Shown here in pieces: positions 5,154-51,655 of a stretch of DNA of 64,000 bases; the stretch's first letter is position 1, and every line of letters starts with the position of its first letter. The translations under genes were made by a program, and so were the position numbers. The DNA comes from an uncultured bacterium (GTDB lineage: Bacteria > Cyanobacteriota > Vampirovibrionia > Gastranaerophilales > Gastranaerophilaceae): NCBI GenBank assembly GCA_902766395.1, contig CACXDL010000041.1:1400-65399 (forward strand), in the 5' to 3' direction. The notes under the pieces are model-generated. The model ran no database searches and had not been told where the DNA came from. It worked only from the letters and a program-made list of their open reading frames with translations.

Positions 5154-5900
5154 ATGGCAATATTACCTGTAAGTAGTGTAAGTTTTAAAAATAATAATGT
5201 AAATTTTAAAAGTAGCAACAATAATGAAGAAACAGAAATGGTTTCAACACCAATAATTTCTGAAGCTCCAAAGGCTATACCGGTAATGGTACTTATGGCG
5301 CTGTCTCCATCATTGCTAAATGCTGCCGTTCCGAAAACTATGGAAGAAAGTTCAAATACCCCAAAAGTTGTTATGGTTGAAGATGCTCCGGAACAAGAAA
5401 TATCGGAAGCAACTTATGTAATGTCTCCGGAATTACAAGAAACCCAGCAAAGTTCCGCACCTTTCGGATGGCCCCAATTAAAAAACCATAATATTAAATA
5501 CACTTTACATGGTCAATCAAGGATGTTTGATTACGACATGATATACACAACAGGGCAATTTAACGATCGAGGGAACAACGTTTCAAATGTATATTTAATT
5601 CCAAGAGATAATAATCGTCCTAACAGTGTACACACTCAACCACCTGAAGTTCTGGAAATAATTTATCACGATATAGGTGATAAAGATGAGTTTTGCGGAG
5701 CAAAAGTTTTTGAATATCTACTCGATAAAAATGGTAATGAAATAGGCAAAATGTGGAGTGAAGTCCCAATGGACAGAAATTCAGCACAAACTTTGATATA
5801 TTTGGTAACAGATCATTCAAAATGGGACAACGACACAAATATAAAAATTAGAAAAGTAAATACAAGTAAACTTTTAACCCCTAGATACGAAGAATATTAA
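5154..5900 (+). CDS. Hypothetical protein (248 aa), possible signal anchor
   Basis: TTTACA-N17-TATAAT promoter upstream and AAGGGG Shine-Dalgarno. Hydrophobic stretch AIPVMVLMALSPSLLNAAV. No family recognised. Confidence 0.5.
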   Translation: MAILPVSSVSFKNNNVNFKSSNNNEETEMVSTPIISEAPKAIPVMVLMALSPSLLNAAVPKTMEESSNTPKVVMVEDAPEQEISEATYVMSPELQETQQSSAPFGWPQLKNHNIKYTLHGQSRMFDYDMIYTTGQFNDRGNNVSNVYLIPRDNNRPNSVHTQPPEVLEIIYHDIGDKDEFCGAKVFEYLLDKNGNEIGKMWSEVPMDRNSAQTLIYLVTDHSKWDNDTNIKIRKVNTSKLLTPRYEEY

Positions 5901-5985
5901 TAAATGTAAAAATTCCGGAATAACTTGAAAAAAAAGTTTTTTCAGATTGTTTGAATAAATAGTTAAACTTAACGGGTGCTAATAC

Positions 5986-8900
5986 ATGAGTTTTGATATT
6001 CCCAAAAGCGATAATTTGATAATAACAACAACGCCAACAACAACAGTGGCGCAAACTGCGATGCCATCAACAACCATATCGGCATCTACAACTGCTTCTA
6101 CAACAAAAACCAATTCCGTATTTACAGCGACTACAAAACCGACAACTGAAACAGCTGTAACCACGCAAACTGTCTCTCAAAAAGAGCCCGATATAAAAGT
6201 TATAGAAAAAAACAAAATAATTGAAAATTTAAAGAAAAAAAACAAAGATAATAAAGTAACAGAAGGCGATATATATAATGAATTAAAAAGATTAGAACAA
6301 GAACATCAACTTACTAAAGAACAAAAAGAGCTACTTAAATATTATGAAGAATTAAAGAATATAGATAAAACAAATCCTGGATATTCGGATAAACTTTTTG
6401 CACAAATTGCACCAGACTCCCTCATATCAGCGGGATTAAACACAAGAACAACTTCAGAAAGTAGCACGCTGGCATCTGAAGAACCTAAGACAGAAAAATC
6501 ACCCGAAGAAAAAGATCTTGAAAACTACATTGCGAAACATAAAGACATATTTGAAAACAAAACCATTGATGATGTTTATTCGTATTTATTACGTAAACCT
6601 GACAAAACAGAAGAAGAACAAAAAATACTAAACATTCTTAAGAGTAATAAAAAAGAAGCATCTCAGGATACCAAGCCTGCAGATGAACAAAGTTCTGCCA
6701 TTTCTCCGGAGAATGCTGAGAAACTTAAAAAATGCAATGAAATAATTCAAGGTTCAGGGACAGATTATGAAAAGTTATCTCAAATTATGGATTTGTATCT
6801 GAGCGAAAATGACCCAGAATACCAAAAACTCCCTGATTATCAGGGAAAAACATATAAGTACGATCGTAAAAGACAGTACAGAGATAAGCTTATTAAAAAA
6901 TTAAGAGAAGACTTCGCTCCAGGGGATTTATCAACTACAGAAAGATCAATAATGCATCAAAAACTTACTGCATTATTTACAAATTGCATTGCCCAAAATA
7001 AAACTATTGATAGCATAACTTCACAAGGAAAAGGGGCACTAAAACAAGAAATAGAAGCTATATCCAATAGAGAATTTAGCTCTATTATACAAAATGTAGA
7101 AACAAAAGGAACGGACCAAGATGTTATAATAAGCTTTGCTGATAAGCTGCTCGCAAATAAACCGGAGTACACAAACTTAACAACTAAAGAAGAAAAAATA
7201 AAATATATAAGATCAAAAGCTGGAGAGATTTTTGAAAAAACTCTTGGTATTCCCGTAGAAAACTTAAAAATAGACTCTGAAACCATGCCACTTATAGAAA
7301 AAGCAGCTGCAGAAGCTATAAAAGAAATTGTCTCAAAAAAATATACTGAATCGGATTTAGAAAACCCAGAAACTCAAAACAAAATTATAAACAATGTTAT
7401 GACAGCTAACCCTGATCTTTTGGAGCAAATCAAAGAAAAACTTCCTAAAGTGTTTAATGGACTTATGGTTTATCTAGAAAAAAATAAACTAATAGCTGAA
7501 TTAAAATTAAACGATAAAGATGGAGTAATTACAGAAGGAGAGATTTATAAGGAGTTAAAAAATAGAGAAAAGAATGGTTCGCTTACTAGTCCTGAGCAAA
7601 AGGAGATGCTTAAATACTACGAGCGCGTAATAATGATGGATAAGGAAATTCCAAATTATTCAAAAACATTATTTAAACAAAAAGCAAGCAATTCCAGTCT
7701 AATAGCACGTGCCGCACTCACAGGCAAAGATGTTCCTACATATATACATGAAATGTTTGCTGGAAAAACTGAACAAGAAATAAATAAAGCTCTGAAAAGA
7801 TTAGTACCGGATGTTAACTCTTTTCCTCCAAATAGCGAAGCATTTATAGCAATATTCACAGAGTTGAAAGAAGTATATGGTCCACAAGAAGCATACAATA
7901 AAATGAAAAAAATGGGAATGAAACAACCACGCGATTTCCAGATTGATGCATTTATTCGCAATGATGGTAAAAGTACTGCAGAATTAGGCAATATAGCTGC
8001 GAATTACGGGACAAAGGCTGAAAAGGAAGAATGCTTAAAAGTTGCCTCTGCATCTGCAAAATTTTTGGATAATGAACAACAGAGTATATATTGGGAAAAT
8101 TCAAACAAATACTACGATAAAACTATTGCTGAAAGTGTTAATAATTACAAAACTAAAGAAGATGCCGTTCAAATTCATGCATATGTTGCAAGTTCTCAGA
8201 TTGTTTCAGACGAAAGAAAATCCTCTGTAACGAAATTCATGGTAGAAACTGCCGCACCTGATAGACAAATTTATTACGCAAGAGAAATGTCAAAAATTAA
8301 AGATGCTGCAGTAACAGAAGGTTTAGCCGCGGCAGAACAAAATGTTGACTCCTCCGTAAGACAACAATATTCTCAATACGTTGATAATGCAATAAAAAAT
8401 AACGGATACACATCTGAGCAAAAAGCTAATATTGAGCAAGCACGCCAAACCGGTCAAATAAGTTATGAGCGCAGCAGTTCTTCTGAAGGGGCATCTGACA
8501 AATCCTCTTCAACCGGAACTAGAACAAGTTCTAACACACCGAGTGCGAGCAGAACTTCCACAGGGTACGCAACAACAGTATCATCCTCAACCGGAGGCTC
8601 TGGGTCCTCTTCCGGAACAGCATCAACATCCGGTTCAAAGCCAACTTATGTTGCATTTGGTTCAACAAATTATGGTGATCAGGTAACAAAGGCTCTTTCA
8701 GATAAAAAAGAAAGAGTTCAAGAGAGAATTACTCAAATTATTGACAATTATCAAAAAACAACAAAAGCTCAAGAAGCAAAATCCGAAAAACAAGCGGACA
8801 CAACAAGTAAAGAAGCCACTTCACAAGCAGCAAAAGCAGCAGAAAAAGAAGCAAAAGTTGTTAAAACCTTTATTGAAAGCCCTCAAGCTTCCGGTAATAT

Positions 8901-14592: not shown

Positions 14593-14660
14593 AGATATAG
14601 AATATTAGAAAAAAATTTAAAAACCAATTATTAAAATAAATTAACATTTTTAAAACTTAG

Positions 14661-14700
14661 GCAATTTTTTAAAACTAAAATACTTTATAAAAATATAGGG
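14661..14700 (+). promoter_or_regulatory. Recurrent 40-bp promoter-like motif, copy A
   Basis: GCAATTTTTTAAAACTAAAATACTTTATAAAAATATAGGG. Matches copy B (17327-17366) at 34 of 40 positions without gaps. Lies 34 nt upstream of the ATG at 14735. Confidence 0.4.
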
Positions 14701-14734
14701 AAAAAGGTTAGTTATTTTTTGAAAGGTTATTGCT

Positions 14735-15406
14735 ATGAGTTTAAACACAAACGTAGGGTTACAAGGTTTTAATACAAATACGGCATCTGCAGGGGCAACC
14801 ACAAATCCTGCGTTACCGCAATTAAATACACCGTTTAATAATAGTATATTTAATTTACAGGCACCTGCTAAAGATTATTCACAGGATCTTATGATGCCTG
14901 ATTTTCTAAAAACAAATACGGCGCAAACATTTACTTCAACTGCTGCAGGTACTACAAATCCGCCTTCTCAAAGCGCAGATATTACACAACAAACAAACAT
15001 TGCACCGCAAACGCAAAATATTCAGACTCAAAATAACACAGTACAAACACCCGCAGGCTTGCAAAACAACATAACATTTCAACAGGATTTAACAAAGCTA
15101 CAGGCTCAAATTAATCAACAAATTGCACAGCAAAGTCCCGAAATAGGTATCTCAGAAAAAGGAAACTTATACAAAACTTCAAATAATGGCAAAAAGCTGG
15201 GACTATTTGGAGGTTTAGTAGCTCCGGTTGCCACAGGGGCATATGCATTAACTAAAGGAGCAAAAATCTCGAAAGCTTTTAACCTGAAAAATCTTTTAAT
15301 AAAATGTCCTTTGGTAGGAGTAGCAGGACTTGCAATCGGGGCAATAGCAGACTACTTTATTAATCGCTATAGAGCAAGCAAAGCAGATTCAACGCAACAG
15401 GCCTAG
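14735..15406 (+). CDS. Hypothetical Q/N/T-rich protein with a C-terminal pair of Gly-rich TM segments
   Basis: 223-aa ORF. N-terminus MSLNTNVGLQGFNTN. Low-complexity Q/N/T region. C-terminal LGLFGGLVAPVATGAYAL and LVGVAGLAIGAIA. Confidence 0.55.
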   Translation: MSLNTNVGLQGFNTNTASAGATTNPALPQLNTPFNNSIFNLQAPAKDYSQDLMMPDFLKTNTAQTFTSTAAGTTNPPSQSADITQQTNIAPQTQNIQTQNNTVQTPAGLQNNITFQQDLTKLQAQINQQIAQQSPEIGISEKGNLYKTSNNGKKLGLFGGLVAPVATGAYALTKGAKISKAFNLKNLLIKCPLVGVAGLAIGAIADYFINRYRASKADSTQQA

Positions 15407-17287: not shown

Positions 17288-17326
17288 TTATTTTTTAAAG
17301 ATTTTAATTATTTTTTATTAAAAAGA

Positions 17327-17366
17327 GCAATTTTTCTAAAAAAAAATACTTTATATAAATACAGGG
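17327..17366 (+). promoter_or_regulatory. Recurrent 40-bp promoter-like motif, copy B
   Basis: GCAATTTTTCTAAAAAAAAATACTTTATATAAATACAGGG, 22 nt upstream of the ATG at 17389. Confidence 0.4.
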
Positions 17367-17388
17367 GATATCTTATTAGGGGAAAAAC

Positions 17389-18822
17389 ATGGCTATAGGC
17401 AAAATTATTGCGCAAAAAGGGCTTAATTTATTATTTCATAATGGCAGGAATACAAAGAACCTATTAAACGAAACACCTTTATTGCAAATGTCAAAAGAAG
17501 TAGCAACAAAAACAAATACTCCCATCTTACATTTAAGATTGAAGCCGGATATAACAGTTCCTGTAAGACCAGAAACAATGGGCGCAAAAGCTCCTTCATT
17601 TGCCATACACAAAGGGAATATCGATACTCCGGCAGCAGATGCCGAATTAGGCAATTTGGCTCTTAGAATAAATTCTGCAGGGCATAAAATAGAAGCAGAA
17701 TTTAGAAAAACACTACAGAATTTATTTCCGGGATATGATGTTGCCACCAGAACTAAAGGAGTTGACTCTTTGCACTCTAAATTAAAGAAATACATTCCTA
17801 AAAATGGGGTAACCGTAACACAAGATAAAGATGCATATAAATTAACTACAGATTATGTTGCCGGTCGAATAGAACTAAAACAACTATCAAAAGATGAAAT
17901 TAACAACATCATAGAAAATACGGTTATAGACGGGAAAAAACTTACCCGAAGAGAAAAAAGATTTGTTCAAAGACTTTTAAAAAACGATAAAAGCCTGTCT
18001 AAAACACAGAAGAAAGCCGGAGAGAAATACCTTAGGCAAGTGCTACTAAATATGGCAGAAAAACAATCTGAGCCCGCGTTTAACAGTATAATGCTTGGAA
18101 TGATGAAAGATGCACTAAACAGAGGCATTACTACTATAGAAAAACTTGCGGCAGAGAATATTGATCCAAGATTAATAAAAGAATTGCAAACAAACCCAGC
18201 AATCCAGCCAATTAAAGTTACAAGATTCTGCAATTACAGAGGTCCAAACAACATTCCTGTTTTTACTGATAATCAAATCAGGCAAATTAAAAAAATGCAA
18301 TTAGCGACAGGGGAAAAATTTTCAATTGCGACATGCTCTGAAAAAATTGATGTGTCAAAATACGGTTTTGAAAATCTTACAGATATAGAAAAAGCCGCAA
18401 TCAAACAAGGAGGGTACACAAGAGCTCAAATGAATATAGAGCTTCCTGACGGTACAATATCCGAACTTCAAATTGCTGCAGGTAAAGATCCTTTCTATTT
18501 TATAGAACACGATTTAGTTTATAACAATTTACAAAATAAAAATACAATCAATGAGGCAATAAAACCTTTTATTGAAAGATATGATTCATTAGATAAAACA
18601 CAAAAAAATATTTTTGGCAGATATTCACAAAATTGTTACTACGACGACAGACTCCAAGGTCTTGTAGGAACCAGACGAATAAGAAAAAATCCTCACGGAC
18701 TGGGAAGAACTTTCTCAAGAGAATCAATGCATAAGCTATACATGAAAGACGCAGCAGATCAAAACGCAAAAATGAAAACTTTTGTACCTTATATAGAAGA
18801 ACCAATAAATTATGTAGCATAG
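17389..18822 (+). CDS. Divergent RelA/SpoT-homologue (RSH synthetase-like nucleotidyltransferase) with a large insertion
   Basis: Ordered motifs R121-x-K-x3-S-x3-K, D155-YVAG-R160, GGY343, E359-LQI and E373-H...Y378. Spacings mirror those of the bona fide Rel in this window (RAKHYYSIYAK / DVTAVR / NMYQSLH / EVQIRT / AHWRY), except for about 144 extra residues between the DxxGxR and GY motifs. Confidence 0.55.
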   Translation: MAIGKIIAQKGLNLLFHNGRNTKNLLNETPLLQMSKEVATKTNTPILHLRLKPDITVPVRPETMGAKAPSFAIHKGNIDTPAADAELGNLALRINSAGHKIEAEFRKTLQNLFPGYDVATRTKGVDSLHSKLKKYIPKNGVTVTQDKDAYKLTTDYVAGRIELKQLSKDEINNIIENTVIDGKKLTRREKRFVQRLLKNDKSLSKTQKKAGEKYLRQVLLNMAEKQSEPAFNSIMLGMMKDALNRGITTIEKLAAENIDPRLIKELQTNPAIQPIKVTRFCNYRGPNNIPVFTDNQIRQIKKMQLATGEKFSIATCSEKIDVSKYGFENLTDIEKAAIKQGGYTRAQMNIELPDGTISELQIAAGKDPFYFIEHDLVYNNLQNKNTINEAIKPFIERYDSLDKTQKNIFGRYSQNCYYDDRLQGLVGTRRIRKNPHGLGRTFSRESMHKLYMKDAADQNAKMKTFVPYIEEPINYVA

Positions 18823-18834
18823 ATCGGAGAAAAT

Positions 18835-19239
18835 ATGATAGAAATTTTTAATAAAGCTAAAATTATAAAATTAAACCCTTATAAAACAAATACAGTGAAT
18901 AATTTAAATTCTTCACTTAACAAGCTGCTTGAAAACATAACAAAAAGAGCTGAATATGAGATTTCAGACAACCACTATTATCGAAAAATAGATGAATCAT
19001 TTAATAATAGCGGATTAAATTGTAAAGGAATAGCTTTTTCGATTTCTCAAGACAGCGATAAATTCGGCGGTCATTTACTTGAAGTTTCAATGCTGCATCC
19101 ATCTATGAAAAAAGAAGTTTCAAGACCTCTTGCATATGGCAACAAAAAAGACATTCTTGATTTTCTTAAAAAAAAGGAATCCATAAAATCAATAAAAGAA
19201 GATCTTGAAGAAATGGTCGAAGATTTAATACATAATTAA
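18835..19239 (+). CDS. Hypothetical small protein (134 aa), co-transcribed with the RSH-like gene
   Basis: Starts 12 nt after the stop of the upstream gene, with a GGAG Shine-Dalgarno in the gap. No family recognised. Confidence 0.55.
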   Translation: MIEIFNKAKIIKLNPYKTNTVNNLNSSLNKLLENITKRAEYEISDNHYYRKIDESFNNSGLNCKGIAFSISQDSDKFGGHLLEVSMLHPSMKKEVSRPLAYGNKKDILDFLKKKESIKSIKEDLEEMVEDLIHN

Positions 19240-19305: not shown

Positions 19306-20319
19306 ATGAAATACAGAGATTATTATGAAATACTGGGTATAAAAAGAGGTGCAACAGAATCTGAAATAAAATCTGCCTACAGAAAACTTGCACGAAAATA
19401 CCACCCGGATGTCAATAAAACAAAAGAAGCCGAGGAAAAATTTAAGGAAATAAACGAAGCCTATGAAGTTTTAGGAGATAAACAAAAACGTCAAAGATAT
19501 GACAGTCTTGGAGCTAACTGGCAAGGAGGAGCAGATTATACGCCACCTCCGGGATTTGAAAATTTTGGCGGCGGAAACTTCCACCAATTCAACTTTGGCG
19601 GTGGTGATATGGGAGGTTTTTCAGACTTTTTCAGCTCTCTTTTTGGAGATATGATGGGAGGAAGAACTTCTCAAAGCAGCTTCGGGGGCTTTGACTTTGG
19701 AAACATGGGAGCCCAGCAACAATACCAAACACGCCAGCGTCCACGTAAGAAATCTCAGGATTTAGATATAACAACAAACCTTACGGTTACGGCAAAAGAT
19801 TTATTTTCTTCTGAACCAATTAATGTAAAATTTTCTGACGTAAGCAAATGTAATCAATGCCGTCCCGGAGAATTCTGCCCGCACTGCGGAGGTACAGGAT
19901 ACACAAAAGAAACAAAATCAATTAAAGTTAAACTGCCTAAAGAAATAAAAGAAGGTCAAAAAATCAGACTAAAAGGGGAAGGACGTATGGATGAATACGG
20001 TCAAAAAGGAGATTTATACCTCATTATAACCCCTAAAGACAGTGAATACGAAATAAACGGTTCAGATTTAACAAAAGATATTGAAATAACTCCACCTGAA
20101 GCCGTTTTAGGCTGTAAAAAAGAAATTAAAACACTCCACGGGAATATTGGAATTCAAATTCCTGCAATGACCTCAAGCGGTAAAATGCTGAGATTAAAAA
20201 ATTTAGGGCTTCCTAAAAAAACAGGAGGATTCGGAAACTTAAATGCTAAAATAAAAATAGTATTGCCTGATAAACTTTCCCCAAAAGAAATTGAACTTTA
20301 TAAGCAGCTTTCCAAGTAA
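19306..20319 (+). CDS. DnaJ/CbpA-like J-domain co-chaperone
   Basis: J domain with HPD (KYHPDVNK). G/F-rich region. Only one CxxC...CxxCGGxG unit ([18 protein letters not shown]). DnaJ C-terminal substrate-binding domains. Confidence 0.8.
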
Positions 20320-20358: not shown

Positions 20359-21834
20359 ATGGACATTAGAAAAGTAGTGTGTCTTGTGATATTAGCATTT
20401 ACACTGGCATTACCGCAAGCACAGGCAATAGAAGATGAAGCCGATTTATTTTATCCTGTAGAAGTTAAGGACGGTACGCTCCTTAATATAATGGATTGTG
20501 TTGCTTTGGCATATAAAAACAGCCCTAAAATAAGACGGCAAAAATATAACTTGGATATTGCAAAAAGCAATGTCGGAATTGCCAAATCTAAATTTTTTCC
20601 GGTAATTGGTGCAGGAGTTGGATTTAATTTTGAACGAAATTCTGATGGAGTGTACTATGACAAAAGATACAGAGATTTACCTGTCGTTGGAGTTACCGTA
20701 AATCAACTGGTCTGGGACTTTGGGAAATCAACTGCTTTTATAAAAATGGAAGAATTTTATAAAATCGGAGCTGAATACGAATTTATGGACGCTTTATGTC
20801 TTACACTTTTTGATATAAAAGCAAAATATTATAATTATCTTCAGGCAAAAGCACTTTTTAATGTCGCAAAAAATAATATTACGTTAAATGAAAAATTTGT
20901 AAAACTTGCAAAAAATAAAGATAAAGCAGATTTGACAACTGCACAGGTTAATTTAAGCGAAGCAAAAATCAAATATATTGAAGCCGAAAACACTTTAAAT
21001 AATGCGAAATACGATTTAAGCAATGCAATGTATTTGGATTCACAACCTGATTATGATATAGAAAACACTCCAACATTTACATATAATGATGACTATGCAT
21101 ATGATTCCAAACTTGTGGAATCAAAACCCTTTGAACCGTATGTTTTTCCGTTCAAAATGGGAGACGCTGTAAGTATTGCATACAATAACAGTCCGGATCT
21201 TCAGGTTTTAATTTCAACAAAAAAAGCAATGGAACAGTCACTAAAATATGTAAAACGTTCATACATGCCTGCCCTCAGTGCCGGAGTAGGATACGGATAC
21301 AACAATACAAATTTTACCAGCAATAACGGTTTGAAAGTCGGAGTAGATTTATCTACTTCCGTCAATCTTATGGAATTAAAACACAGTATTAAAGGTGCAG
21401 ATGCTCAATTAAGACTTGCAGACAACGAAATAAATCTGTTTAAAAAAGATTTATATTACGAAGTCCAACGCGCATTCAATAATGTTAACAGAGCAAAAAA
21501 GCAAGTACCGACAGCAAAAACTGAAGTTGAACAAGCTCTGAATAATTTAAAAATAGTGGAATCACAATATATTGCAAATAAACTTGATTATATTTCTCTG
21601 CAAGACGCCCGAAAGATTTATATAAAATCATTAGACAGCTATATTAACAGCATTTACAATTACAATATTGCACTGATACAAGTTGAAATGGCTATGCATT
21701 ATCATCTTATAGATATTCATCATAAATCAGAACACGCAATGCATTACCACGCAGAAGAATTGATAGAACACTTAAACAAAGTTCTGGAATGCGACGAAAA
21801 AGAAGTTAAAAATAAAAAATCTAAAAAACACTAA
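20359..21834 (+). CDS. TolC-like outer membrane efflux protein
   Basis: Signal peptide ending AQA. Two OEP-type repeats (SPKIRRQKYNLDIAKSNV...FFPVIGAG and SPDLQVL...YMPALSAG). TATAAT-N6-ATG upstream. Confidence 0.75.
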   Translation: MDIRKVVCLVILAFTLALPQAQAIEDEADLFYPVEVKDGTLLNIMDCVALAYKNSPKIRRQKYNLDIAKSNVGIAKSKFFPVIGAGVGFNFERNSDGVYYDKRYRDLPVVGVTVNQLVWDFGKSTAFIKMEEFYKIGAEYEFMDALCLTLFDIKAKYYNYLQAKALFNVAKNNITLNEKFVKLAKNKDKADLTTAQVNLSEAKIKYIEAENTLNNAKYDLSNAMYLDSQPDYDIENTPTFTYNDDYAYDSKLVESKPFEPYVFPFKMGDAVSIAYNNSPDLQVLISTKKAMEQSLKYVKRSYMPALSAGVGYGYNNTNFTSNNGLKVGVDLSTSVNLMELKHSIKGADAQLRLADNEINLFKKDLYYEVQRAFNNVNRAKKQVPTAKTEVEQALNNLKIVESQYIANKLDYISLQDARKIYIKSLDSYINSIYNYNIALIQVEMAMHYHLIDIHHKSEHAMHYHAEELIEHLNKVLECDEKEVKNKKSKKH

Positions 21835-22247
21835 TAATGAACTTCTTTGTTATACCACATTTCATTGATAATTTCCCTGAGCTTTTGTTCATCGCTGAAT
21901 GTAATATGCTTTAAGTTTATATTTGAACCATTTTTCATTTCTAAATAAAGAGAATATACATAATAATGTTTTCTGTGATATTTTGTTCCTGAAGTTCTAT
22001 GATGTTTTAATATTTTATAAGAGGCAATATCTCTTGGATTGAACTGCACTTCTATATGCTCTTTTGTAAAATGATTTTCCCGCGTTGTAACAGTACAACC
22101 AACATCCGGTATGCAATCTAATTTTTGACTTGCATCTGTGAATAAAAAGATTAAAGCAGCAATAAACATAACTACTAAAAACATATAAAAGCGTTCCATC
22201 GGAGTCCTGTCATGACGACTTTTAAATATAAAAGAAAATATACTCAT
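21831..22247 (-). CDS. Hypothetical single-TM protein (138 aa)
   Basis: ORF with one hydrophobic segment (FYMFLVVMFIAALIFLF). Last gene of the co-oriented run downstream of minCDE. Confidence 0.45.
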   Translation of the reverse strand: MSIFSFIFKSRHDRTPMERFYMFLVVMFIAALIFLFTDASQKLDCIPDVGCTVTTRENHFTKEHIEVQFNPRDIASYKILKHHRTSGTKYHRKHYYVYSLYLEMKNGSNINLKHITFSDEQKLREIINEMWYNKEVHY

Positions 22248-49453: not shown

Positions 49454-51655
49454 ATGTCAGACGTCGAAACATTTAAAGAGTTAAAAGAAGCTTTAACCAA
49501 GCAGGAACATACTTCGGACGATATTGCATTAGTCGAAAAAGCATATAAATTCGCAAAAAAGAAGCACGAAGGGCAATATCGTGTTTCTGGTGAACCATAC
49601 ATAATTCATCCTGTTGAAGTTGCCAAAATACTTGCCAACCTTGAAGTTGACACGCACACACTAATGGCAGCATTTTTACATGACATACTGGAAGATACAG
49701 ACACAAAGCCTGAAACAATAAGAGAAATGTTTGGTGATGATGTTTTGAATCTCGTTCAGGGAGTTACCAAATTAGGAAAGTTAAAATTTAAGTCCAAAGA
49801 AGAAAGACAGGCAGAAAATTTCAGACGTCTGTTCATTGCAATGGCAAATGACATAAGAGTCATATTTTTAAAACTTGCAGACCGACTGCATAACATGCGG
49901 ACTCTTAACTTTATGACACCTGAAAAACAGAAAAAAATTGCTCAGGAAACCATAGATATTTTTGCACCTTTAGCAAACAGACTAGGTATCTACAAGATAA
50001 AAGCCGAACTAGAAGATTTATCACTTAAATATTTAGAGCCAGAGAAATACTATGAAATCGCACAATTAGTTGCCCAAACAAAATCTGACAGAGAATCTAC
50101 CGTAAACGAACTAATTGATAAAATTTCGCATGATGTTGAAAAAAGTGGTATAAAGGCACAAATTACGGGAAGAGCAAAGCACTATTACAGTATTTATGCA
50201 AAAATGAAACGCCAAAACATCACTTTTAATGACCTATATGATGTGACTGCAGTCAGAGTAATTGTAGACTCCATAAAAGAATGTTATGAAGTTTTGGGTA
50301 TAATTCATTCCCAATTTAAACCAATCCCCGGCAGATTTAAAGATTATATCGCAATGCCGAAAGGGAACATGTACCAATCATTACATACATCCGTTATCGG
50401 CCCTCGTTTAAAACCGCTGGAAGTTCAGATAAGAACATGGGAAATGCATCAAATTGCAGAATTCGGTATTGCTGCACATTGGAGATACAAAGAAAAAGGT
50501 TCACAAAAAGCAGACGGTGCGCAGGATAAACAATTCTCCTGGCTTCATAAACTTGTAGAATATGATAAAGAAGTAACAAATGCAGAGGATTATGTTAAAA
50601 GCGTAAAATTAGATCTATTTTCGGATCAGGTTTTTGCTTTCACTCCAAATGGTGATATTTATGATTTTCCAAAAGATGCAACATGTGTAGATTTTGCATA
50701 CAGGATTCACTCTGATGTAGGACATAAAACAGTCGGGGCTCTGATTAACGGCAGAATTGTGCCATTAAACACAAAACTCAATAACGGAGATATTGTTGAA
50801 GTTTTAACATCAAAAACGCCTGCTCCACGGCTGGATTGGTTAACATTTGTTGTAACCAAACAAGCATCTTCTAAAATTAAACAATGGTTCAAGAAAAATA
50901 ATAGGGAAGAGCACATTAATCTTGGGAAATCAGCTCTTGAACATGAACTTACTAAAGCAGTTTTTGATGAAAATTTGAAAAATGGAGAATTTGATAAAAT
51001 TGCCAAAATGATGAATTATCAAACAGGAGATGATTTATTTGCAGCAGTCGGCTACGGCGAAACAACGGCAAACAAAGTTGCAAACAAACTCAAAAAACCT
51101 GAAGATAAACATATTGAAGACTCTTTTCATAAAAGTGGCAGAAAGAGCTCTAACAAGGATATAATCGGCTTAGAAGGTATGTTATATTCTTTTGCCAGGT
51201 GCTGTTCGCCAATTCCGGGAGAACCAATTGTCGGAGTAATAACAAGAAACAAAGGAGTTACGGTCCACAGAGTTGACTGCAAAACACTTGAAACAATCCC
51301 ACACGAAAGAATGATGGATATCAAATGGGCAGGAATAAACACAAATAAAACATATACAACAACAATAAGAATTGAAACCGCTGAAAAATTAGGACTTTTA
51401 AAAGATGTTATTTCTGCTGTTTCAGATAATAATACGAATATTGTAAATGCAAATATTAAAACAAAAAATCATGTCGGTATTATCGAGATAGGCATAGAAC
51501 TTGATAATATTGATACTCTGAAAAAAGTTATAAATTGTATTCAATCTTTACCGGATGTCTATAGCGTAAAACGTATCCAGACATCTGCAAACAACATAAA
51601 AAATACTTCTGCAAGCAAACCTCAAAAAAGGAATATAAGCAAGAACAAAAAATAA
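49454..51655 (+). CDS. relA: Bifunctional (p)ppGpp synthetase/hydrolase (long RSH)
   Basis: HD hydrolase (HPVEVA...HDILED), synthetase (RAKHYYSIYAKM, DVTAVRVIV, YQSLH, EVQIRT), TGS and ACT domains. Confidence 0.95.
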   Translation: MSDVETFKELKEALTKQEHTSDDIALVEKAYKFAKKKHEGQYRVSGEPYIIHPVEVAKILANLEVDTHTLMAAFLHDILEDTDTKPETIREMFGDDVLNLVQGVTKLGKLKFKSKEERQAENFRRLFIAMANDIRVIFLKLADRLHNMRTLNFMTPEKQKKIAQETIDIFAPLANRLGIYKIKAELEDLSLKYLEPEKYYEIAQLVAQTKSDRESTVNELIDKISHDVEKSGIKAQITGRAKHYYSIYAKMKRQNITFNDLYDVTAVRVIVDSIKECYEVLGIIHSQFKPIPGRFKDYIAMPKGNMYQSLHTSVIGPRLKPLEVQIRTWEMHQIAEFGIAAHWRYKEKGSQKADGAQDKQFSWLHKLVEYDKEVTNAEDYVKSVKLDLFSDQVFAFTPNGDIYDFPKDATCVDFAYRIHSDVGHKTVGALINGRIVPLNTKLNNGDIVEVLTSKTPAPRLDWLTFVVTKQASSKIKQWFKKNNREEHINLGKSALEHELTKAVFDENLKNGEFDKIAKMMNYQTGDDLFAAVGYGETTANKVANKLKKPEDKHIEDSFHKSGRKSSNKDIIGLEGMLYSFARCCSPIPGEPIVGVITRNKGVTVHRVDCKTLETIPHERMMDIKWAGINTNKTYTTTIRIETAEKLGLLKDVISAVSDNNTNIVNANIKTKNHVGIIEIGIELDNIDTLKKVINCIQSLPDVYSVKRIQTSANNIKNTSASKPQKRNISKNKK

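Follow-up and report, generated by a model that had tools for sequence, protein, structure and literature searches.

We have established that a stretch of 64,000 nucleotides (nt) from an uncultured bacterium of the Gastranaerophilaceae (contig CACXDL010000041.1, positions 1,400 to 65,399 of the forward strand; the whole of this stretch is hereafter called the window) encodes a real and very divergent RelA/SpoT homologue (RSH) synthetase. The enzyme, which consists of 477 amino acids (aa), is the product of open reading frame (ORF) 17389-18822 and is followed by a cognate partner of 134 aa, here called ORF134, which might be its antitoxin or immunity protein. RSH synthetases take pyrophosphate from ATP and attach it to the 3'-OH group of an acceptor, and enzymes of this family play a central part in the stress signalling of bacteria; a role as toxins, in toxin-antitoxin (TA) modules, antiphage systems and secreted effectors, has been recognised as well since 2019-2021. 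The genomes closest to the window, which has a G+C content of 30-36%, are metagenome-assembled genomes (MAGs) of Melainabacteria/Gastranaerophilales from gut and rumen, the Melainabacteria being a non-photosynthetic sister lineage of the Cyanobacteria that is found in human and animal guts. As a kind of system, an RSH-fold toxin or small alarmone synthetase (SAS) with a cognate partner is already known. New in the present case are the insertions inside the enzyme, the predicted fold of the partner, an N-terminal module in giant relatives and a copy of the pair that is fixed in the chromosome beside dnaJ.

Results

Membership of the 477-aa protein in the RSH family

The original prediction, made from the letters of the window, had described two ORFs of 477 and 134 aa separated by a 12-nt gap with a GGAG, and had seen RSH synthetase motifs in the first of them. 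Both ORFs, the gap and the GGAG were found in the sequence at the positions given (Table 1), and a domain search of the 477-aa protein showed, as predicted, no hydrolase, TGS or ACT domain. The protein had also been said to lack an obvious annotation, and searches of Pfam, NCBIfam and PDB sequences with the window proteins did return nothing beyond sub-threshold noise (Cullin, Relaxase_C, LptE and 3H domain). The long Rel with which the motifs had been compared, ORF 49454-51655, is real and was matched by HD_4, RelA_SpoT (4.8e-44), TGS and ACT.

We recovered 23 homologues of 470-546 aa with 36-92% identity to the window enzyme, and the family alignment of 24 sequences, which reaches down to 34% identity, is referred to as A1. 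The A1 profile found no match in the PDB because the insertion in these proteins breaks the profile match, and this was solved by building a second alignment, A3, from the domains of 14 insertion-free relatives. When the two alignments were compared with hhalign, they were homologous with a probability of 100% (E 2e-50). The A3 profile in turn matched RelP/YwaC (6fgk, 5.6e-8), the Rel of S. aureus (7oiw, 4.7e-5), RelP (1.4e-4) and RelQ (5dec, 4e-4) in the PDB, and all of its top 19 matches there were RSH enzymes with the motifs in the correct register. The Pfam RelA_SpoT model PF04607 was matched by 12 of the 14 A3 members (best 1.6e-9), two of which, P0074 (31.2 bits) and P0107 (30.7 bits), lie above its gathering score of 27. 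Within A1, seven of the 24 members matched PF04607 individually (best 1.7e-5) over profile positions 2-62, which lie in the first half of the domain, ahead of the insertion (P0015, P0014 and P0019 were matched there). In P0050 and P0066, positions 50-108 matched the C-terminal half of the core. Against the single sequence of the window Rel, the hhalign matches were weak (E 0.08 for A1 and 0.0056 for A3) and in the correct register.

The AlphaFold2 (AF2) model of the enzyme has a predicted local distance difference test (pLDDT) score of 85.7 and a predicted template-modelling (pTM) score of 0.82. In a Foldseek search of the PDB with this model, RSH structures (Rel, Tas1 and RelSeq) took five of the first six ranks, and Tas1 was the match with the highest target TM-score (0.49). 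Among the viral protein models of BFVD, phage RelA/SpoT proteins were matched with E-values of 3.4e-3 and 9.9e-3 (probability 1.00 and 0.99). The absence of any significant profile or structural match had been named beforehand as a possible refutation of the prediction; significant homology was found by way of A3, and we regard RSH membership as established by the homology between A1 and A3, the PDB and PF04607 matches of A3, and the similarity of the AF2 model in Foldseek. At E-values up to 1, the A3 profile retrieved no chain of Tas1, CapRel or FaRel2, and PADLOC gave no defence-system match for the pair. Judged by sequence, the window enzyme appears to be a member of none of the validated subfamilies of toxic SAS (toxSAS), namely FaRel, FaRel2, PhRel, PhRel2 and CapRel.

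Catalytic motifs and two insertions in the fold

The motif spacings of the original prediction, R121-T-K123-x3-S127-x3-K131, D155-YVAG-R160, G342-Y343 and E373-H374...Y378, are all correct and invariant in A1, and the 16 residues from Y343 to E359 are indeed the same number as in the window Rel. Invariant throughout A1 are R121, K123, S127, K131, D155, R160, K339, G342, Y343, T344, E359, Q361, G365, E373, H374 and Y378, and such constancy across 24 sequences argues that the motif matches are not due to chance. The residues of syn1 and syn2 align to R-x-K-S-x-x-S-I-x-x-K and D-x-x-G-x-R of RelP, and those of syn3, syn4 and syn5 to its K-P-N-G-Y-R-S-L-H, E-I-Q-I-R-T and E-H. On this motif conservation, the enzyme appears to be catalytically intact, with a synthetase (SYNTH) domain as its only catalytic domain.

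A single Lys/Arg-rich insertion of about 144 residues had been proposed to lie within the catalytic fold. The excess length is real (~143 residues), and it is divided between two insertions, of ~92 and ~51 aa, rather than contained in one. The excess of the first falls between R160 and R278, and the AF2 model places there, with pLDDT above 90, helices at residues 168-177, 187-197, 205-244, 250-255 and 260-268. The core of this insertion (residues ~181-266) belongs specifically to the melainabacterial lineage linked to dnaJ and is absent from most of the broader clade, and its last helix is present in some relatives; the first insertion has a majority fraction (the measure of conservation used here) of 0.63 and nine invariant columns. 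After it comes a strand in which N282, Y283 and G285 are invariant in A1. The second insertion follows this strand, so that 60 residues lie between Y283 and Y343, compared with 9 in Rel. It is the most conserved segment of the protein (majority fraction 0.71), with F292, Q296, I297, E309, K310 and C316 invariant. Neither insertion is less conserved than the catalytic core, the majority fractions of which are 0.57 and 0.68. The Lys/Arg-rich character holds for the window lineage (net charge +23) and not for the family, the other orthologues having +2 to +10. A role of the basic insertion as an RNA-binding module was considered and rejected, because the positive charge is lineage-specific and not family-wide.

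At the family level, syn2 ([AG]-G-R) and syn4 (Q-[IV]-R) follow the guanosine-RSH type and not the Apk type, and syn3 (G-Y-T-[T/R]-x-Q) has neither the S-x-H of RSH enzymes nor the G-x-N of Apk. The replacement of E-x-Q-I-R-T by ELQIAAG, to which the prediction had drawn attention, is correctly read and peculiar to the clade of the window, as half of the family has E-x-Q-[IV]-R-G. The N-terminal 45 residues of the enzyme are poorly conserved and disordered. Neither a signal peptide nor a transmembrane segment is predicted in the window enzyme, and no known trafficking domain (PAAR, MuF, LXG, Rhs or other) was found in it.

The partner ORF134

Conserved pairing of the two genes had been set beforehand as a check, and all related loci examined have an ORF134 homologue after the enzyme. 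It lies 10-35 nt downstream of the enzyme gene in 40 of the 40 loci first examined, among them relatives at 27-31% identity, and is also present in L041, L042, L043, L046 and L049. The family alignments of ORF134 (A2 and A4) share a conserved VSMLHPSM motif, in which H88 and P89 are invariant. Its AF2 model (pLDDT 73) consists of one helix, a four-stranded antiparallel sheet and two helices. The protein has no significant match in the PDB, Pfam, NCBIfam or PADLOC; therefore, it is not an HD-type alarmone hydrolase, nor is it pZFD, Tis1-like or PanA, the antitoxin domains known to neutralise toxSAS enzymes (PMC11782079). Compared with the PDB, the model had Pur-alpha and Whirly-like folds at the top with a probability of at most 0.3, and we take the modelled structure to represent a new alpha+beta fold.

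Two further arrangements were seen. In L004, the locus of the P0009 lineage, the enzyme gene is followed by two genes of the ORF134 family (7459-7872 and 7928-8338), the second of which is very divergent (16% identity, E 5.8e-26 with the family hidden Markov model (HMM)). In L037-L040, which come from MAGs labelled Cyanobacteria bacterium OH_* and, in one case, Gastranaerophilales, a distant subgroup of the enzyme (ORFs of about 254-585 aa as listed) has weakly similar partners (E about 1e-8), with no dnaJ neighbour and no promoter motif; the G+C content of L038 is only 25.7%.

A wider clade that includes giant proteins

An HMM search with the A1 profile against 1.84 billion representative proteins yielded at least 500 related clusters at 50% identity, 370 of them at E-values up to 1e-10, and the clade appears to be concentrated in the Melainabacteria. 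Most relatives match the profile as two adjoining blocks, from ~90 to 180 and then from ~265 to 460, and most relatives are therefore without the central insertion. Among the 147 best representatives, 71 are stand-alone proteins (up to 600 aa), whereas in 57 the domain closes a larger protein at its C-terminus and in 19 it is internal; the domain thus forms the extreme C-terminus in 57 of the 76 large representatives. In P0059 (7,567 aa) and P0056 (1,124 aa), the whole domain of the melainabacterial type, including the insertion, stands at the extreme C-terminus, and an ORF134 homologue begins 13-14 nt after each of the two genes (E 7.8e-26 and 1.9e-11). Versions of 1,756 and 437 aa are likewise accompanied by the partner (E 3e-10 and 3.9e-27), and next to a version of 410 aa the place of the partner is taken by an equally long ORF whose similarity to it is only marginal. 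These giant proteins have the architecture of a polymorphic toxin family.

P0059 is encoded at 340-23043 of L041, on a contig with a G+C content of 34%, and contains two tandem J-domains (aa 1262-1324 and 1364-1417) and a weak N-terminal match to an EF-hand. Apart from these, RelA_SpoT was the sole Pfam domain seen in the large relatives that were scanned. Recurrent fusion to J-domains was considered and discarded, as P0059 is the only giant protein that has them. At least one giant-protein locus is melainabacterial, because a gene flanking it is 71% identical to a gene of the window.

The large proteins have no Sec signal, and the scans of large relatives revealed no PAAR, MuF or other known trafficking domain. 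An N-terminal module of ~45 aa, with the consensus ..K-I-x-x-[FY]-x-x-x-N-P-x-x-K-x-x-x-x-x-x-[IV]-[LIV]-S-I-M.., is common to 22 of 87 large proteins (P0070, P0077, P0100, P0113, P0124, P0134, P0138, P0140, P0144, P0147, P0151, P0156, P0173, P0174, P0181, P0183, P0190 and P0202, plus cluster members), and the window enzyme has no copy of it. A new polymorphic-toxin-like family could be defined by this module or use it for trafficking.

A promoter-like element upstream of the pair

About 40 nt before the start codon of the enzyme lies a bipartite, promoter-like element of the pattern GGCAATTTT-N11-ATACTTTATAWAWAYAYAGGGG, which in the window reads (G)GCAATTTT, 11 nt, ATACTTTATAWAWAYAYAGGGG. Of 39 related loci, 29 contain the element, 15 with no mismatch at all, and its columns are invariant in alignment A5. 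The window contains two copies compared with 0.02 expected (0.23 for the full bipartite pattern), and across 552 kb of related loci the element occurs only in front of the enzyme-ORF134 operon. We therefore regard the motif reported in the original prediction as real, although it had been said to be shared with two envelope-related loci and within the window it is shared with only one other locus, upstream of ORF 14735. A riboswitch or structured leader was considered, but the element has no match in Rfam and no conserved RNA structure, and therefore it probably acts at the DNA level. These patterns of conservation suggest that the pair is driven by a dedicated promoter-like motif. A generic scan for sigma-70 promoters and terminators was uninformative in this AT-rich DNA (11 sites compared with 13.4 expected). 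No terminator-like site was predicted between the enzyme and ORF134 or between ORF134 and dnaJ, and a CIRCE/HrcA heat-shock operator was looked for upstream of the pair and of dnaJ and was not found.

ORF 14735-15406, on the forward strand, is preceded by GGCAATTTT-N11-ATACTTTATA...AGGG and encodes a protein of 223 aa that has no Pfam match, is rich in Q, N and T in its N-terminal half and has a hydrophobic region towards the C-terminus. No homologue of it was found in the fetched loci except in the syntenic L049. From the shared element, this ORF may be co-regulated with the RSH-like operon.

Genomic neighbourhood and evolution of the pair

The dnaJ-family gene adjoins ORF134 on the same strand in 32 of the 36 loci with enough downstream sequence, and from this arrangement it is probably co-transcribed with the pair. 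The DnaJ of the window, the only J-domain protein in the 64 kb, has a reduced cysteine cluster (C-N-Q-C...C-P-H-C-G-G-T-G) and no Pfam zinc-finger match. The pair is found directly upstream of dnaJ in most Gastranaerophilales and, with its own promoter, has been inherited vertically as a syntenic gene set in 30 species or more. In 28 loci, a highly conserved DUF2582 winged-helix gene of 72-74 aa lies ~135 nt upstream of the enzyme (e.g., L001, 5650-5868); the window has no such gene there and contains atpD and atpC instead, in divergent orientation. A palindrome of conserved sequence, GATATTACA-N3-5-TGTAATATC, flanked by A- and T-runs, follows the DUF2582 gene ~60-70 nt upstream of the promoter motif and is absent from the window. 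It was considered as an operator, in the form GATATTACA-N4-TGTAATATC, and set aside, as changes compatible with G-U pairing and the flanking T-runs suggest that it is the intrinsic terminator of DUF2582. In L004, there is no adjacent dnaJ and pgk lies upstream of the pair; the pair, along with its promoter motif, is therefore able to move without dnaJ. Paralogous loci also carry the pair without dnaJ.

Across 28 orthologous loci, DnaJ is 77-84% identical to that of the window (mean 79.6%), and the mean identities of the enzyme and the partner in the same loci are 37.7% and 44.0%. The identities of enzyme and partner co-vary (r = 0.47) and show no co-variation with that of DnaJ. When the window was compared with its closest fully syntenic relative, L049, the enzyme was 92% identical in aa sequence, with a ratio of nonsynonymous to synonymous substitution rates (dN/dS) of 0.07, ORF134 was 74% identical (dN/dS 0.16) and DnaJ was 94% identical (dN/dS 0.05). 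ORF134 is the fastest-evolving gene of the operon, its dN being 4.6 times that of the enzyme, and whole-gene dN/dS gave no sign of positive selection. The divergence of the pair, far faster than that of its conserved neighbours, would fit evolution of the conflict type.

Searches of plasmid and phage collections with tblastn found no relatives, nor did a scan of viral contigs with A1, A3 being too diverse for such a pattern scan. One contig, L033, is binned as 'Candidatus Methanomethylophilaceae archaeon' and carries, with the enzyme at 5704-7171, the block of DUF2582, enzyme, partner and dnaJ; because this gene block is typical of the Melainabacteria, L033 is probably a binning contaminant. 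Its enzyme gene is split into two overlapping ORFs by a frameshift or an assembly error.

Table 1. Features of the RSH-like locus, with positions in the window
Feature	Position	Strand	Basis or remarks
Bipartite promoter-like element	17326..17367	+	Conservation across loci
Ribosome-binding site AGGGGA	17378..17383	+	Sequence reading; 5 nt before the ATG; AGGG/GGGA run kept at the same position in orthologous loci
Coding sequence of the 477-aa divergent RSH-family synthetase	17389..18822	+	Nucleotide 3'-pyrophosphokinase fold; no HD/TGS/ACT
Core, N-terminal half	17749..17868	+	syn1 R121-x-K123-x3-S127-x3-K131 (ATP phosphate-binding); syn2 D155-x3-G159-R160 (catalytic Asp)
Insertion 1, residues ~166-275	17884..18213	+	Helical bundle, ~92 aa longer than the Rel equivalent; AF2, alignments
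Strand T-R-F-C-N282-Y283-R-G, first half of syn3	18214..18243	+	Equivalent to Rel G-R-F-K-D-Y-I; AF2 strand 276-284
Insertion 2, residues 286-337	18244..18399	+	~51 aa, alpha/beta, splits the acceptor-binding syn3; clade-wide, including the A3 consensus
Core, C-terminal half	18400..18525	+	syn3 I-K339-x-x-G342-Y343-T-R345-x-Q347; syn4 E359-L-Q361-I-A-A-G; syn5 E373-H374-x3-Y378
C-terminal helical extension, residues 386-463	18544..18777	+	Common to the wider clade; AF2 helices 389-399, 403-426 and 444-463; A1/A3 alignment
Ribosome-binding site GGAG of ORF134	18826..18829	+	Sequence reading; within the 12-nt gap
Coding sequence of the 134-aa cognate partner (ORF134), putative antitoxin/immunity protein	18835..19239	+	Motif VSMLH88-P89-SM
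dnaJ-family gene	19306..20319	+	J-domain and DnaJ_C; Pfam DnaJ 4.1e-29, DnaJ_C 1.8e-32
Second copy of the bipartite element	14660..14701	+	Upstream of ORF 14735-15406

Discussion

What might such a pair do in the cell? Conserved bicistronic SAS layouts have been shown experimentally to indicate toxicity (Jimmy et al. 2020, PMC7229694), and the small proteins known to neutralise RSH toxins do so by occluding either the donor or the acceptor site (PMC11782079, PMC12226406). Because the layout of the window pair would predict toxicity and known RSH toxins are blocked by small proteins, we lean with moderate confidence, by analogy, towards a pyrophosphokinase that resembles toxSAS or Apk enzymes, that ORF134 would neutralise by binding directly to it, and whose gene has become a fixed part of the chromosome. 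The two genes would be transcribed together from the conserved bipartite promoter. The product of the enzyme would inhibit growth, being either an adenosine- or guanosine-based alarmone, with a drain on ATP, or a pyrophosphorylated tRNA 3' end, and ORF134 would neutralise the enzyme stoichiometrically by binding to it and blocking a substrate site. The window pair might then be a free-standing copy of the cassette seen in the giant proteins. Because its synteny is conserved, its promoter is dedicated and the window protein has no trafficking module, the pair would more likely act inside the producing cell, as a stress-linked brake on growth, than as an exported weapon. The toxicity, the neutralisation by binding, the intracellular action and the substrate are what we infer from these comparisons, and the giant-protein cassette and the fast divergence of the pair lend circumstantial backing to a toxSAS-like or effector/immunity reading.

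Several observations weigh against this picture. The window protein itself and the A1 profile failed to find RSH matches in direct searches of Pfam and the PDB, so that RSH membership is a matter of transitive homology and predicted structure, and the Foldseek matches in the PDB were individually non-significant (E 0.46-1.4), as is expected when the alignment is global and large insertions interrupt it. The clade of the window (ELQIAAG) and its sister clade (ELQV--G) have no syn4 Arg. ORF134 lacks a DNA-binding domain, which is common in type II antitoxins. Fast evolution is shared by a neighbour, orf138 (ORF 21831-22247 on the reverse strand; 138 aa, without a Pfam match, and sharing 4 nt with the end of the TolC-like gene on the opposite strand), which shows 72.5% aa identity and a dN/dS of 0.15 against the closest relative, as fast as ORF134; therefore, fast evolution alone is not diagnostic. 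Finally, TA and effector-immunity modules are normally patchy and mobile, and the inheritance of this pair vertically, at a single locus, across an order and under purifying selection (0.07 and 0.16) is unusual for them.

Those same features make room for a SAS that is specific to the lineage and not toxic, since conflict modules are not usually inherited vertically under purifying selection. Such an enzyme would make (p)ppGpp or a related signal in a stress response, possibly to proteotoxic stress or heat given the co-transcription of dnaJ, and ORF134 would be its allosteric regulator or sensor. A locus fixed and vertically inherited between the highly conserved DUF2582 and dnaJ, the purifying selection on it and its dedicated, conserved promoter, which suggests regulated expression, would all suit this view, as would syn2 and syn4 of the guanosine-RSH and not the Apk type and a clade closest by sequence to RelP, RelQ and Rel rather than to Tas1, CapRel and FaRel2. 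SASs, moreover, form a continuum of toxicity (Jimmy et al., PMC7229694). However, the SxH signature of syn3 for guanine is replaced by [T/R]xQ and syn3 is split by a 51-aa insertion, the genome already has a complete bifunctional Rel, and neither the L004 lineage nor the paralogous loci have dnaJ beside the pair. A housekeeping regulator is also hard to reconcile with an identical cassette at the ends of giant proteins and with identities of ~38% and 44% for enzyme and partner, compared with 80% for DnaJ. We consider this explanation unlikely, and we judge in the same way the possibility that the 477-aa protein is an exported effector, a free-standing polymorphic-toxin module delivered to competitors, with ORF134 protecting the producer and its kin. 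That the complete domain ends proteins of 7,567 and 1,124 aa with an ORF134 homologue 13-14 nt later, that the domain is C-terminal in 57 of 76 large representatives, and that 22 of 87 large proteins share an N-terminal module, as polymorphic toxins share trafficking domains, would fit export. The order of toxin and then immunity gene is that of Tas1/Tis1 and Apk2/IapK (PMC12226406), Tas1 gave the top target TM-score in the PDB (0.49), the pair diverges rapidly, and the disordered, variable N-terminal 45 residues could be a secretion signal. Yet the window protein itself has no trafficking domain, shared N-terminal module or signal peptide, the Apk-type syn signatures (RYT, GxN and YH) are absent, no secretion system is linked to the locus and the downstream TolC-like gene is not kept at that position in other lineages; the pair belongs to a syntenic, vertical gene set with its own promoter and not to a variable island with orphan cassettes.

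It is very improbable that the protein is a degenerate pseudo-enzyme with a structural or scaffolding role, or that its motifs resemble those of RSH enzymes by chance. The missing direct match to Pfam RelA_SpoT, the non-significant E-values of Foldseek against the PDB and the loss of the syn4 Arg in the window clade could be read in that sense. They are outweighed in our judgement by the significant profile-level homology to RSH enzymes, by the invariance of all other catalytic residues down to 34% identity and by the dN/dS of 0.07 of the enzyme. The clades that lack the syn4 Arg are also the ones that carry an extra Arg in syn3 (GYTRAQ compared with GYTTxQ), and this pairing of loss and gain in the same clades looks like a compensatory relocation.

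A more elaborate possibility, which we think has only a small chance of being right, is a chaperone-gated growth switch in which promoter, RSH-like gene, ORF134 and dnaJ form one unit. ORF134 would be a labile protein that depends on DnaK/DnaJ for its folding or turnover, and proteotoxic stress, by titrating the chaperones, would release the pyrophosphokinase and arrest growth; because the insertion splits syn3 and the guanine signature is replaced, the acceptor might be one that known RSH enzymes do not use. Such a unit would recall the toxin-antitoxin-chaperone (TAC) systems (PMC5105189, PMC6377645), in which, as here, three genes lie on the same strand and a gene of the chaperone system follows the putative toxin and its neutraliser, and one giant relative, P0059, has two fused J-domains. 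However, the chaperones of TAC systems are dedicated SecB paralogues, whereas the DnaJ found here is ~80% conserved and housekeeping-like; the pair lacks dnaJ in some lineages, and no chaperone-addiction segment was identified, no test having been aimed at one. The likeness is an analogy only, and a TAC-like switch is speculative, given the high conservation of DnaJ and the lineages in which the pair does without it.

Returning to the toxSAS-like or Apk-like pyrophosphokinase that we favour, we compared the pair with the systems to which it is closest. With toxSAS modules (FaRel, FaRel2, PhRel, PhRel2 and CapRel; PMC7229694; Dominguez-Molina et al. 2024, PMC11782079), it shares a SYNTH-only enzyme with N- and C-terminal decorations, a G-loop Tyr and catalytic Asp and Glu that are kept, a tight and conserved bicistronic layout with a small family-specific partner (found here in 40 of 40 loci) and, by analogy, an expected control by a structured protein that would occlude the donor or the acceptor site. 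In contrast to them, the window enzyme has two large internal insertions within the catalytic fold, the fold of ORF134 is not that of pZFD, Tis1-like, PanA or small alarmone hydrolase (SAH) proteins, and the window pair is passed on vertically at one fixed locus instead of being patchy and mobile, with a cassette that also ends giant proteins. Apk1/Tas1-Tis1 (PAAR, type VI secretion system) and Apk2-IapK-Aph1 (MuF, prophage) (PMC12226406) resemble the relatives of the window enzyme in having the RSH-fold domain at the C-terminus of large proteins and a small cognate gene immediately downstream, which in the window family would encode an immunity protein, and Tas1 is among the best structural matches. 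Unlike these, the window protein is free-standing, the large relatives scanned have no PAAR or MuF, and the family has syn2 [AG]GR, syn3 [T/R]xQ and syn4 Q[IV]R (QIAA in the window) instead of RYT, GxN and YH; unlike Apk2, the window pair is associated with no product-hydrolysing Aph1/SAH gene. RelP (YwaC) and RelQ (YjbM) are the closest solved relatives by profile and have the same motif order and Tyr-to-Glu spacing. They are, however, compact enzymes of about 210-230 aa without insertions or an obligatory partner, compared with 477 aa here, and have N-G-Y-x-S-x-H in syn3 where the window family has G-Y-T-[T/R]-x-Q.

In the paper library searched, we found no paper that mentions both Melainabacteria and alarmones, and the 2020 census of RSH proteins, which defined 30 SAS subfamilies, does not mention Melainabacteria (PMC7229694). 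The locus described here reveals a large RSH clade, and curated models miss the window protein. To the RSH family, this clade adds two conserved insertions in the catalytic fold, one of which passes through the acceptor site, a partner with a new predicted fold, and giant proteins of 1,000-7,567 aa that share the same terminal cassette and an uncharacterised N-terminal module. If the enzyme is toxic, the biology of toxSAS and Apk would extend to a new phylum and to a new neutralisation fold, and the giant proteins may point to a new route of delivery. If it is not toxic, these organisms would have a second alarmone-type signalling enzyme, encoded beside the chaperone gene dnaJ.

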